This document shows, piece by piece, positions 3,001-9,000 of a stretch of 64,000 bases of DNA. Position numbers: made by a program. The stretch lies in the NCBI RefSeq assembly GCF_045037415.1, contig NZ_CP173438.1, one strand, 5' to 3'. Source of the stretch: Escherichia coli (lineage in GTDB: Bacteria > Pseudomonadota > Gammaproteobacteria > Enterobacterales > Enterobacteriaceae). Every line of letters begins with the position of its first letter. Positions within the stretch are counted from its first letter, which is position 1.

Positions 3001-6000
3001 AATACTTCGAGTTACCAAGCAGTGGTCAGGGGGTAAGTAGCCAGCCCGAGGCGTAAGAACATGACGGCAGGGTTCAACTTTAATAACTATGCAGCAGGTT
3101 TTTGTTCCGCTCCCCCGGCGTTAAGGGGAAATGAGGTCAGCATGGATACTATCGATCTTGGCAACAGCGAATCTCTGGTATGTGGCGTGTTCCCCAACCA
3201 GGACGGCACGTTCACCGCAATGACGTATACCAAAAGCAAAACGTTTAAAACCGAAAATGGTGCCCGTCGCTGGCTGGAAAGAAACTCAGGTGAGTGATAT
3301 GGATTTCGACACAATCATGGAAAAGGCTTACGAAGAATACTTCGAAGGCCTTGCCGAAGGCGAAGAAGCTCTCAGCTTCAGTGAGTTTAAACAGGCGCTT
3401 TCCAGCTCGGCAAAATCTAACGGCTGATAAGCGAAGCAGCACCGCGAGGAATCAGTATGCAGAAACGAGAACCCGTCATCATCGCGCCAGACTATACCGA
3501 TGATGAACTTTATGAGTGGATGCGCCAGAAAATTAATGCAGCGCAGGATCTGAAATGGGCCAATGAAGCCAGGACTAAGCAGGCTGAAAATCTGTCCGCT
3601 CTGGAGCAGGATATCACCAGGCTGGAAAAAGCAGCGGCATTAAGCATTGCCAGAATGGTTACATACCCGCGTTAATAGCTAACCAACGAAGCTAAGGTTG
3701 GTAATTAAGGAGTTCTCCACGGGTCAGGTGGAGTGCGTGCGCCGGACACGGGTGAACATCCGGCACTGACAGTTTACTGAAAGGATATGTCCCTGAAAAG
3801 TCAGGGCATAAAGCGAAAGCGCACGGCGAAATTGGTCTCTCTGTACGGTGTCGTTAAATTTAGTTCGACCGTGCGCTTCCGGTTGTGGCACTCCGCGAAA
3901 TGGCGCGGCGGTAAGTATGGCGGGGTTATTCCTTCCTCCGTTGAGGACACCGGGTTGTCAGGTTGACCATACGCTTAAGTGACAACTCCGCTGCAACGCC
4001 CTCTGTTATCAATTTTCTGGTGACGTTTGGCGGTATCAGTTTTACTCCGTGACTGCTCTGCCGCCCTTTTTAAAGTGAATTTTGTGATGTGGTGAATGCG
4101 GCTGAGCGCACGCGGAACAGTTAAAACCAAAAACAGTGTTATGGGTGGATTCTCTGTATCCGGCGTTAATTGTTAACTGGTTAACGTCACCTGGAGGCAC
4201 CAGGCACCGCATCACAAAATTCATTGTTGAGGACGCGATAATGGAAACGTTATTACCAAACGTTAATACGTCTGAAGGTTGTTTTGAAATTGGTGTCAAT
4301 ATCAGTAACCCTGTATTTACTGAAGATGCCATTAACAAGAGAAAACACGAACGGGAGCTATTAAATAAAATATGCATTCTTTCAATGCTGGCCCGTTTAC
4401 GTCCGATACAAAAAGGATGCTGGCAATGAATACAGCATTTGCACTTGTTCTGACAGTTTTTCTTGTTTCCGGAGAGCCAGTTGATATTGCAGTCAGTGTT
4501 CACAGGACAATGCAGGAGTGTGTGACTGCAGCAACCGAACAGAAAATTCCCGGTAACTGTTACCCGGTCGATAAAGTTATTCACCAGGATAATAACGAAA
4601 TCCCGGCAGGTCTTTAAAACAGTTCCGTAATAAATATCCGGTTTCATTCTTATATGCCAGCAATGGCAGGGATTTGTTCACCCTTAAATCTGTAATGAGG
4701 TAAAACAAAATGAGTAAAGTCTTTATTTGCGCCGCCATTCCGGACGAACAGGCAATAAAGGAAGAAGGTGCCGTCGCTGTAGCCACTGCCATTGAAGCCG
4801 GTGATGAACGTCGCGCCCGCGCAAAATTTCACTGGCAATTCCTGGAACATTATCCGGCTGCTCAGGACTGCGCTTATAAATTTCTTGTCTGCGAGGATAA
4901 ACCCGGTATACCCCGCCCTGCCCTCGATTCCTGGGATGCTGAATATATGCAGGAAAACCGCTGGGATGAGGAGTCTGCTTCCTTTGTCCCGGTTGAGACT
5001 GAATCCGATCCGATGAACGTCACTTTTGACAAGCTGGCCCCTGAAGTACAGAACGCTGTCATGGTTAAGTTCGACACATGTGAAAACATCACCGTTGATA
5101 TGGTTATTAGCGCACAGGAATTGTTGCAGGAAGACATGGCAACATTCGACGGACATATCGTTGAAGCGTTGATGAAAATGCCAGAAGTTAACGCCATGTA
5201 TCCGGAGCTTAAGCTGCATGCCATCGGGTGGGTTAAGCATAAATGTAAGCCTGGTGCCAAATGGCCCGAAATTCAGGCAGAGATGCGCATCTGGAAAAAA
5301 CGTCGTGAAGGTGAACGCAAGGAAACCGGAAAATACACGTCTGTTGTTGATCTCGCCCGCGCCAGAGCCAATCAACAGTACACTGAAAATTCAACAGGAA
5401 AAATCAGCCCGGTCATTGCTGCCATTCATCGCGAATACAAGCAGACATGGAAAACACTGGATGACGAACTGGCCTACGCTCTCTGGCCTGGTGATGTGGA
5501 TGCCGGAAACATTGACGGCAGCATCCATCGCTGGGCAAAAAATGAAGTTATCGACAACGACCGCGAAGACTGGAAGCGTATCTCGGCATCAATGCGCAAA
5601 CAGCCTGATGCCCTTCGCTACGACCGCCAGACTATTTTTGGCCTTGTCCGTGAACGTCCGATCGACATTCACAAAGACCCTGTGGCACTGAACAAATACA
5701 TTACTGAATACCTGACTACAAAGGGCGTGTTTGAAGATGAAGGAAGAAATCAGAGCGCAACTGATACTCTCTCGTCGCCAGTACCAGAAACTGATGCAGT
5801 GGAAACGGCAATTCCGGACAACGAAAAAACCGAATGCAAAGTGGAAGTCGAACCATCTGTAGAGCGTGAGGGGCCGTTCTACTTCCTCTTCACCGACAAG
5901 GATGGCGAAAAATACGGTCGCGCAAACAAACTTTCTGGTCTGGATAAGGCGCTGGCTGCCGGGGCAACTGAAATCACGAAAGAAGAATATTTTGCCCGCA

Positions 6001-9000
6001 AAAACGGCACATACACAGGTTCACAACAAAATACTGATGCATCTGACACGACCGCACAACCAGACCTGGTAAAAGTTACCGCTGACGAAGTAAACAAAAT
6101 TATGCAGGCAGCCAGTATCAGCCAGCCTGACGCTAATAAGTTGCTCGCTGCATCACGTGGTGAATTTGTTGAAGGGATTAGCGACCCGAATGATCCGAAA
6201 TGGGTGAAGGGGATTGAAACCCGCGATTCTGTGCACCAGAACCAGTCAGAAACGGAACAGTACGACCAAAAAGCGGAACAAAACAGCCAAAATGCGTTAC
6301 AAAACGAGCCAGAAACGAAACAACCTGAACCAGTCGTGCAACAGGAAGAGGAAAAAGTTTGTACCGCATGCAATCAGACTGGTGGTGGTAACTGCCCTGA
6401 TTGTGGCGCAGTGATGGGTGACGCAACCTACCAGGAGACATTCAACGAAGAAAGCCAGGATGAAGCCCGGGAAAAAGATCCAGAGGAAATAGAAAATGCC
6501 GGACTCCCGAACAAGGAGTGCACCGAAGGCGATCAACATGCCAATGACAATAATGAAATAGGCGAGACAGCAAATCCCTTAATTAAGGTGAACAGTCATC
6601 GTAAAAGCACATCCACCAGCAGGTTGTGGCACCATCTGATGATTGACCTTGAAACCATGGGAAAAAATCCTGATGCCCCGATTATCTCAATAGATGCAAT
6701 ATTTTTCGATCCGCAAACCGGAGATATGGGGCCGGAATTTAGTAAGACTATCGATCTGGAAACTGCTGGCGGAGTCATTGATCGTGACGTCATTAAAAGG
6801 TGGCTGAAGCAATCACGTGAAGCGCAGTCTGCCATTATGACCGATGAAATCCCGTTAGATGATGCACTGTTACAATTGCGGGAATTTATCGACGAAAACT
6901 CCGGTGAATTTTTTGTTCAGGTCTGGGGAAATGGAGCCAACTTCGAAAACACGATTTTGCGCCGTTCATACGAACGGCAGGGGATCCCCTGCCCATGGCG
7001 TTACTACAACGATCGCGATGTACGCACAATCGTTGAGCTGGGGAAAGCCATAGACTTCGATGCCAGAACGGCTATTCCATTCGAAGGTGAGCGCCATAAT
7101 GCACTTGATGACGCCCGTTACCAGGCAAAATACGTTTCAGTTATCTGGCAAAAACTGATCCCGAATCAGGCTGATTTTTAATGTTCAACCCCGGTCGTTG
7201 CCCACCAGCTATAGTGGCGGCGACCATGATTAGCGAACGACGCTCATGGCAAGACTTATTCTGCTCACTGAGTGGGCAAAAGAGGAATTCAGTGAACCGG
7301 TCCCAACTCCGAGTACGTTAAGTAAATACGCTAAAGCCGGAATGATATTTCCTCTCCCCAAAAAAGTTGGAAGACGCTGGCGAGTGGATCCGCAAGCTCG
7401 CTTTGTCGGAATGGTAAACAAGCCGGAGGTGATCGCCACAGATCACCCTGCTTTGAAGAGGATACTGGAAGATGGCGCGCCCGCGAAAATATAAAACCAA
7501 TGTTCCGGGATTATCTCCGTATTTTGACAAAAGAAATAACAAAGTTTACTGGCGTTACAGGCATCCCATAACAGGCAAAAATCACGGTCTCGGCAGTATT
7601 GACCAGAAACTGGCAGAAACTATTGCAGCAGAAGCGAACAGCCGTCTTGCCCGGCAGCAAATGGAACAAATGCTCAGTCTGCAGGAGAAAATTATTAGTG
7701 ATACCGGCGGTTCATCAACCGTTACCATTTTTCTGAATAATTACAGAAAAATTCAACAGGAAAGATATGAAAACGGCGAGATCAAACTCAACACGCTGAA
7801 ACAGAAAGCGGCCCCTCTCAGGGTATTTGATGAACGTTTTGGCACCAGACCGTTAGATGCCATAACCGTAAAAGATGTGGTATCAGTACTGGAAGAGTAC
7901 AAGGCCAGAGGACATAACAGAATGGGACAAATTTTCAGGAAGGTACTGATCGATGTTTTCCGGGAAGCTCAGCAAACGGGCGATGTCCCGCCAGGCTTTA
8001 ACCCTGCAGAATCGGCAAAAAAACCGCAGGTGCGGATATCAAGACAGCGACTGACTTTTGATGAGTGGATGATGATTTATAACGCAGCGGAAAAGGATGG
8101 TTACTTTTTACAGCGCGGTATGCTGCTGGCACTGATGACAGGCCAGCGCCTTTCAGATATTTGCAAAATGCAATTTTCGGATATCCGGGATGGTTATCTT
8201 CATGTCGAACAGCAAAAAACAGGAACCCGGATTGCCATCCCTCTGGCTCTGCGTTGCGATAAATTAAATCTCACCCTAGATGATGTGGTGTCATCCTGCC
8301 GCGATTGCGTTCTTAGTCCGTGGCTATTGCACCACCATCACGCGAAAGGGACAGCTAAGCGCGGCGGGATGGTTAAGCCAGCAACATTAACCGTTGCATT
8401 TAAAAAAGCCCGGGATTCTGTGGATTACAACTGGCGTGCTAATGGCACCCCACCCTCTTTCCATGAGCAGAGATCTTTATCAGAGCGATTGTTCAGAGAG
8501 CAGGGGGTTGATACCAAAATTTTGCTGGGCCATTCGAATCAAAAAATGACCGATATTTACAACGACGCACGCGGTAAGGAATGGAAAAAACTGGTCATTT
8601 GATGACCAGTTTTGCAGAGGGGTTTTGCAGAGGTTTTGCAGAGAAAATTAAAAACGATATCCTGCGGAGAACATAAACACCCACGGATCCAGTCGTACCG
8701 AGTCTTTTACGGTAGTAACACCAGATTTGTACTTAGCCGTGGTATCGATATCCATGTACCAGACTGACATATTCAGCAACCAGTCACGGTTGATGAGATA
8801 ATCCAGGCCTACTTGCCCCGCCACGCCCCATGAATCCTTCAGACTAAGGTCAGATAAACCAAGACCTTCACCGGTGTCATTGAAGTCATTATTAAAAAAG
8901 GTGGTGTAGTTAATACCCGCACCAATGTAAGGACGGAATTTACTGCCAGAATCGCCAAAATACCATTGTGCCATCAGTGTTGGCGGTAAATGATGGACTG

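Follow-up and report, generated by a model that had tools for sequence, protein, structure and literature searches.

Rv2179c of Mycobacterium tuberculosis, the founder of the Pfam family PF16473, is a small stand-alone bacterial exoribonuclease. Exonuclease A of phage T4 (DexA), a free-standing DNA exonuclease of 227 amino acids (aa), belongs to the DEDDh fold family. Its structure (PDB 8KEL and 8KEN) was solved in a 2025 paper, in which W152 and D169 were named as the residues that recognise 5-hydroxymethylcytosine (5hmC), and S87 and D90 as those that form the tetramer (PMC12153337). In the same work, the Escherichia coli DexA homologue EcD digested 5hmC-containing T4 DNA and, when plasmid-borne, protected cells against T4, and DexA homologues were most common in Escherichia (PMC12153337). 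RecE of the Rac prophage (exonuclease VIII, K-12 b1350) carries its nuclease domain at residues 564-866, and the full-length protein is better at linear-linear recombination (PMC11611040). Here we compare these proteins with the product of a ydfE-family gene at positions 4710-7181 (plus strand) of a 64,000-nucleotide (nt) stretch of E. coli DNA. This whole stretch is called the window, and positions are window coordinates unless another record is named. In the window the ydfE gene is intact; the family encodes modular early proteins of lambdoid phages, and the 823-aa product here joins a non-catalytic scaffold, shared in part with RecE, to a DexA-type nuclease head.

The last ~180 residues of the product are a DEDDh 3'-5' exonuclease domain of the DexA/Rv2179c type (aa 641-813; 6630-7148, plus strand), which sits where RecE has its PD-(D/E)xK 5'-3' nuclease. 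The domain matched the Rv2179c-like model PF16473 from end to end (model positions 1-177 of 177, E = 2.5e-60, 203.7 bits). The likeness to Rv2179c runs through this Pfam model, the family domain being here the C-terminal head of a much longer phage protein. For the head, an alignment was built that included T4 DexA together with 83 diverse homologues. The Exo I motif MIDLETMG (aa 644-651; 6639-6662, plus strand) placed D646 and E648 against DexA D7 and E9, residues kept in 82 and 78 of the 83 homologues, respectively. The Exo III motif HNALDDARYQ (aa 796-805; 7095-7124, plus strand) placed H796 and D801 against DexA H186 and D191 (82/83 and 80/83), and the query has both the acidic pair of Exo I and the H-x4-D spacing of Exo III. 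At the Exo II catalytic position, which is Asp in 80 of the 83 homologues and D119 in DexA, the window allele has the codon GAA (6945-6947, plus strand) and lacks the catalytic Asp; the replacement, Glu746, is a conservative change. A first-pass annotation of the window, made from the sequence alone, had been silent on Exo II.

Searches of PDB sequences with the whole protein and with the head alone found only T4 DexA (8kel), at E = 1.7e-4. The two proteins align over the whole domain as well as in Exo I and Exo III, but the similarity is weak, DexA has extra loops, and its D119, W152 and D169 are replaced by Glu, Tyr and Ala in the query. From this homology a 3'-5' polarity of the head is predicted.

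The first ~630 residues are a non-catalytic scaffold of compact domains with disordered, acidic linkers, and its second half is common to Rac RecE. BLASTP against K-12 Rac RecE aligned query residues 262-625 (5493-6584, plus strand) with RecE 278-591 at 38% identity (E = 3e-56), with near-identity over aa 477-625 (from nt 6138), a part that includes the RecE peptide cited in the first-pass annotation and a Cys4 motif. The block is acidic and of low complexity, the fraction of Asp plus Glu being 0.20 over aa 441-640. It corresponds to the non-catalytic region of RecE, and because of this the homology alone does not make the protein a recombination exonuclease. The NCBIfam exonuclease VIII model (NF007259) aligned at positions 271-602 of 877 only and scored 253.1 bits against a curated equivalog cut-off of 1269. 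The alignment with RecE stops at RecE residue 591, and the C-terminal PD-(D/E)xK domain (PF12684) is absent. The first 260 aa of the query are of the YdfE_N/YdfE_C type, in contrast to the Exonuc_VIII type of the RecE N-terminus. Both genes lie in an early leftward operon upstream of xis-int, and natural chimeras connect the two architectures; however, by the exonuclease VIII score, the missing PD-(D/E)xK domain and the missing recT downstream, the query is not a RecE.

The first-pass annotation had described an 823-aa ORF (open reading frame) with a central block in common with Rac RecE, Exo I and Exo III motifs in its C-terminal ~180 aa, and no recT or bet gene between it and xis. Each of these features was found again. 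The ORF appeared in our ORF list and in the PGAP annotation, the RecE block (Cys4 included) in the BLASTP alignment, and the two motifs in the PF16473 match and the DexA alignment; the 64 nt between the stop codon and xis hold no ORF of the recT or bet kind. A standard PD-(D/E)xK fold at the C-terminus, which would have spoken against the DEDD assignment, did not appear, as Pfam found only PF16473 there. The label 'recombination exonuclease' was not supported, as the region shared with RecE is the non-catalytic one, and the protein falls outside the RecE family by its score of 253 against 1269 bits, the lack of a PD-(D/E)xK domain and the lack of recT.

An AlphaFold2 (AF2) model of aa 1-450, made with an alignment of 13 diverse sequences, was confident and predicted a scaffold of four compact domains split by disordered linkers. 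Domains 1 (aa 1-97, alpha/beta) and 2 (aa 103-206, helical) are encoded at 4710-5327 (plus strand), showed a predicted local distance difference test score (pLDDT) mostly above 90, and are what K-12 ydfE still retains. Domain 3 (aa 245-343) is helical and domain 4 (aa 387-432) is a small beta-hairpin plus helix; the two are encoded at 5442-6005 (plus strand), with a disordered linker between them in the model. The motif GPFY...GRANK of domain 4 is the best conserved in the front half, and the nearly invariant columns of this region in alignment A2 were R386, G388, P389, F390, Y391, R404, N406 and K407. Comparison of the scaffold with solved folds found no informative relative. The ratio of nonsynonymous to synonymous substitution rates (dN/dS) was 0.06-0.57 across domains, showing purifying selection on every domain, and was lowest in domains 1 and 2 (0.06-0.16). 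The Cys4 motif CTACNQTGGGNCPDC (aa 551-565; 6360-6404, plus strand), found by pattern search and equivalent to RecE 517-531, is a putative zinc ribbon of this lineage. It occurred in only 4 of 30 long family representatives, confined to those with the E. coli/Rac-type middle block, and is therefore neither family-wide nor essential to the family.

The start of the window falls within a lambdoid prophage whose integration site adjoins ompW. The plus-strand genes here are, in order, a LexA-family repressor gene, ydfA, ydfB, ydfC, DicF, dicB, ydfD, the exonuclease gene, xis and int, and the same order was seen in the Qin dicB operon of K-12 and in phages mEp460, Tritos and vB_EcoS-640R1 (640R1). 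A consensus promoter scan, which is a crude scan, found no plus-strand promoter-like site ahead of the gene; all 4 sites found were on the minus strand, against 8.9 expected by chance. On the basis of this consensus scan, a promoter of its own was rejected for the exonuclease gene. The lack of a plus-strand site, together with the position after ydfD, led us to read the gene as a distal part of the repressor-controlled early leftward operon.

No annealing-protein gene was present from the repressor gene to int in the ORF list or the PGAP annotation. As the first-pass annotation had proposed, the rest of the prophage was also searched, using record L001 from E. coli strain 4/1-1, and nothing in the whole prophage was annotated as RecT, Bet or Erf. 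Its annotated content comprises O-like and DnaC-like replication proteins, DUF1627, DUF977, QueH, DUF968/HNH, RusA, Q, and genes for lysis, head and tail. When 10 early-region proteins were scanned against PHROGs, none matched an annealing family, and the complete genome of Tritos, which carries the same gene, has neither an annealing protein nor gam. The arrangement of a two-component exonuclease/annealase system, with an annealing gene adjacent or in the same phage, was thus not found.

Long representatives of the family, classed by local BLAST, showed that heads are exchanged on this scaffold. P0123 has a Rac RecE N-terminus at 100% identity and the RecE middle block followed by a DEDD head, P0156 has a query-like middle followed by the true RecE nuclease head (PF12684), and several other long representatives have a YdfE front with other C-termini. 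The DEDD head ran straight into xis-int without an annealing gene in 8 of 8 contexts (window/L001, mEp460, Tritos, 640R1, P0123, P0133, P0137 and P0165), the P0123 context being Rac-like with kilR, ydaE and sieB. With the PD-(D/E)xK head, a RecT-type gene came next in 3 of 3 contexts, namely K-12 Rac, P0156 (PF03837) and P0139 (PHROG 561, RecT-like, E = 3.5e-101); the contexts of both kinds are all from related enterobacterial prophages and do not count as independent samples. The exchanged unit looks like 'PD-(D/E)xK head plus recT' on one side and 'DEDD head alone' on the other, with the conserved middle block as the likely crossover site.

We lean, with moderate confidence, towards reading the protein as a 3'-end nuclease that is made on induction, works without an annealing protein and is carried by a RecE-type scaffold; in this copy it may be attenuated. 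As the distal member of the early leftward (dicB) operon under repressor control, the gene would be expressed after induction or infection and not in a quiet lysogen. The scaffold would bring the head to the site or partner recognised by the N-terminal region of RecE, probably linear DNA ends, and the head would shorten free 3' ends by taking off nucleotides, the action of DexA on DNA. The protein would act without a phage annealing protein, any recombination would use host functions and the RusA resolvase of the prophage, and the whole would not be a two-component exonuclease/annealase recombinase.

Several points weigh against this reading. Activity, substrate and polarity all rest on homology, and RNA may be the substrate, Rv2179c being an exoribonuclease. 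An annealing protein may be hidden, unrecognised, among the small or hypothetical ORFs. The eight DEDD contexts are enterobacterial lambdoid prophages with the same exo-xis-int layout and so do not count independently, and, with a promoter scan as crude as a consensus scan, the gene may be expressed in the lysogen. With no informative solved fold relative found for the scaffold, its targeting of DNA ends is a guess.

The window allele departs from the family at four near-invariant sites of the head, with the changes G662D, T694V, W697R and D746E (codons at 6693-6695, 6789-6791, 6798-6800 and 6945-6947, plus strand; T694V takes two nucleotide changes). Cluster P0008, which with 23,183 member sequences is the dominant one in E. 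coli, has the canonical residues, as do the alleles of phages mEp460, Tritos and 640R1; in mEp460 and Tritos, the Exo II residue is encoded by GAC. Across the 183-aa domain, the window allele and P0008 differed at 6 residues, of which 4 were at near-invariant positions against 1.15 expected (hypergeometric P = 0.013); the corresponding counts were 0 of 4 for mEp460 and 0 of 3 for Tritos. Among close E. coli alleles, the Exo II residue was Asp in 107 and Glu in 13. Haplotypes read at positions 646/648/662/694/697/746 in 120 close cluster representatives, which are not independent of each other, formed a graded series from DEGTWD (69) through DEGVWD, DEGTRD, DEGVRD and DEDVRD to DEDVRE (12), the haplotype of the window. 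Separate Exo I knock-outs, E648K and D646N, were found in other alleles, and the more distant member P0133 carries E648K together with D746A. We take this series to mean that the catalytic centre has repeatedly been weakened or retuned in resident prophages. With Glu in Exo II and the three further changes, the window allele probably has a weaker or retuned activity relative to the dominant allele. We also considered relaxed selection on this domain, which was not seen: the dN/dS of the head was 0.15-0.29, and 0.19-0.29 in comparisons with the window allele (small counts in both cases), which indicates that the head domain as a whole is not decaying.

The same allelic evidence could be taken further, to a nuclease that is dead or nearly so in the window allele, the protein being kept for a scaffold-only role or the change being recent. 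The Glu at Exo II, the excess of changes at near-invariant sites, the graded series with its independent E648K and D646N alleles, the doubly changed P0133, and the retention of only the first 257 codons in K-12 would all fit such a loss. However, the change from Asp to Glu is conservative and leaves a carboxylate in place, the ORF is intact, and the dN/dS of the domain in the window-allele comparisons is not near 1. The occurrence of the gene at at least 99% identity in 352 complete-genome records fits clonal spread and, equally, a working gene. We regard a dead nuclease as unlikely.

Other heads were also found on the YdfE scaffold. A third class, seen in P0135, P0141, P0148, P0172 and P0204, has a conserved domain of ~270 aa (genes at 5001-7717 of record L016 and 5001-7927 of record L017). 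Pfam gave a sub-threshold match of this class (alignment A1) to Rad52_Rad22 at KKSLTDALKKALSLLGF (E = 0.015), and its AF2 model was weak (pLDDT 64) and showed no Rad52 match. With the Pfam match sub-threshold and the PDB profile search empty, a Rad52-type annealing domain was not established for this head. In the P0141 and P0148 contexts, the third-head gene overlaps a downstream Mu Gam-like/Sipho_Gp157 gene. A fourth type, P0129 (702 aa), carries after the YdfE scaffold a C-terminus of ~250 aa of no recognisable family (PHROG 26058), and its gene (5001-7109 of record L010) runs directly into xis-int beside ompW.

A broader and speculative idea, which we doubt but put forward, is that lambdoid phages use the RecE/YdfE scaffold as a general platform for delivery and swap DNA-end-processing heads on it. 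The heads would be the 5'-3' PD-(D/E)xK nuclease accompanied by RecT, the lone 3'-5' DEDDh nuclease, and the third head of unclassified fold followed by the Mu Gam-like gene. The DEDD version would then be an undescribed, annealing-protein-independent 3'-end pathway, costly to the host and repeatedly attenuated; such attenuation would have left its trace in the graded series and in the independent Exo I knock-outs.

The relation to DexA raises the question of defence, since a prophage could use a DexA-like exonuclease, in the manner of 'HREX', against infecting T-even phages by degrading their 5hmC-modified DNA. Speaking for this are the homology of the head with DexA, the anti-T4 activity of EcD and the abundance of DexA homologues in Escherichia (PMC12153337), and the moron-like positions of some stand-alone homologues at prophage edges. 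EcD/'HREX', like the query, is a DexA-type DEDDh exonuclease encoded in E. coli genomes. By its published description, EcD has Ala (A78) at the DexA D90 position and keeps the W152/D169 pair (PMC12153337). The query has neither feature: the 5hmC pair is replaced (W152 by Y766 and D169 by A780, where the alignment is less certain than at the catalytic motifs), and the tetramer residue D90 is kept as D718. The numbering of EcD, with A78 equivalent to DexA D90, suggests a short stand-alone protein, and a defence role of that kind would leave the 630-aa scaffold without a function. The gene lies inside a repressed early operon with no promoter-like site of its own, and the PADLOC defence models gave no match to it. 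The residues, the operon position and the lack of a PADLOC match argue against an EcD-type role, which we consider quite unlikely.

It is very unlikely, in our judgement, that the protein is a recombination exonuclease of reversed polarity, resecting 3' ends to expose 5' single strands for an annealing or strand-exchange partner that is host-encoded or unrecognised. The first-pass annotation had proposed a domain swap of this effect; the swap itself is real and recurrent, as P0123 and P0156 show, and the recombination role was assumed. In its favour, the gene lies immediately before xis-int, where lambdoid phages have exo/bet, its scaffold is common to RecE, and the prophage keeps a RusA resolvase. 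DexA is also placed in double-strand-break-dependent intron homing in T4 in the 2025 paper (PMC12153337). However, the segment shared with RecE is the non-catalytic part, neither in the prophage nor in Tritos was an annealing protein found, and many alleles have lost or attenuated the head, whereas a core recombination function would be expected to be kept. In addition, 5' overhangs are not known to serve as substrates in the established annealing or RecA-loading pathways, which also counts against such a role.

Least probable of all is a head that acts on RNA, as a 3'-5' exoribonuclease trimming or degrading host or phage transcripts in the lytic cycle: the Pfam family is named for the exoribonuclease Rv2179c, NCBI uses the name '3'-5' exoribonuclease', and the gene belongs to the dicB operon, whose transcript is heavily processed to release DicF, but the only solved relative found by sequence is the DNA exonuclease DexA, and the head alternates with DNA-recombination heads on the same scaffold.

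The gene is far from a one-off. Megablast found it in 4503 of 5426 complete E. coli genomes, and copies covering at least 80% of it in 3532 of the 5426 (~2/3). Among 50%-identity representatives, 10,063 proteins matched at E of at most 0.001, and most of these were stand-alone DEDD proteins of ~180-250 aa. Two stand-alone homologues of the DEDD head, ~48% identical, were found in different surroundings: one, moron-like, at the edge of a prophage next to lysis genes, with phage genes on one side and bacterial genes on the other, and one beside a SNF2-type helicase in a phage early region (5001-5555 of record L021 and 3169-3720 of record L024). Reading the function of the head from such contexts was tried and given up, as they were too few and too mixed.

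The gene and its domain architecture are already catalogued in databases, in most E. coli genomes. PGAP annotated the same ORF in record L001 as 'exonuclease' (WP_016230610.1), the record differing from the window by 1 mismatch in 9821 compared bases, and NCBI names thousands of close relatives '3'-5' exoribonuclease' or 'exonuclease'. The product matched PHROG 2082 end to end (1-823 of 823). Every part of the 823-aa protein has a Pfam family (YdfE_N, YdfE_C and Rv2179c-like). YdfE_N (PF27430) and YdfE_C (PF27432), families of newer Pfam releases that cover the front of the protein, were assigned through precomputed matches in homologues 87-99% identical to the query, and this membership agrees with the identity to ydfE. 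The K-12 Qin pseudogene ydfE (b1577) corresponds to aa 1-257 of the product at 98% identity and lies behind the same upstream genes (ydfA, ydfB, ydfC, dicF, dicB and ydfD). Unlike the window gene, it is a stump that an IS2E insertion cuts off after codon 257, and it has neither the RecE-like block nor the nuclease head.

Our literature search found no functional study of the full-length YdfE/Rv2179c-like phage family. The family has probably been neglected because K-12 carries only the stump, although near-full-length copies occur in about two-thirds of complete E. coli genomes. Beyond the existing annotation, the comparison shows mosaic heads with or without a RecT gene and an active-site allelic series. 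The head swaps bear on the function of the RecE N-terminal region, which must suit both a 5'-3' nuclease with an annealing partner and a 3'-5' nuclease without one. The allelic series suggests pressure on resident prophages to tone the nuclease down, which would bear on prophage domestication. Should the anti-T4 activity reported for a DexA homologue hold for this family too, the gene would be a defence gene of very wide occurrence, although the residues examined argue against this.

In the neighbourhood of the gene, the immunity region (1466-2869) has a LexA/S24-family repressor gene (2153-2869, plus strand) diverging from a Cro-like gene (1888-2103, minus strand), which is followed by a YdaT-family gene, CII-like by PHROGs (1466-1891, minus strand). 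The block from ydfA to ydfD, in the same early leftward operon, spans 3142-4617 (plus strand, PGAP on record L001), with the DicF small RNA at 4015-4066 (Rfam, 76.7 bits), dicB at 4241-4429 and ydfD at 4426-4617, all on the plus strand. Downstream, the excisionase gene xis (7246-7494) and the integrase gene int (7472-8602), both on the plus strand and found by the ORF list and by PGAP on record L001, complete the prophage end that adjoins ompW. The Qin-type dicB operon is complete here, in a prophage that still has full replication, lysis, head and tail genes, whereas the K-12 version is decayed. The same prophage also carries queH, a DNA methyltransferase gene, genes for tRNA-Ile and tRNA-Arg, and the gene for the RusA resolvase (L001 11502-17183 and 44083-47268), and an ISEc12 element is inserted in its lom gene (L001, outside the window).

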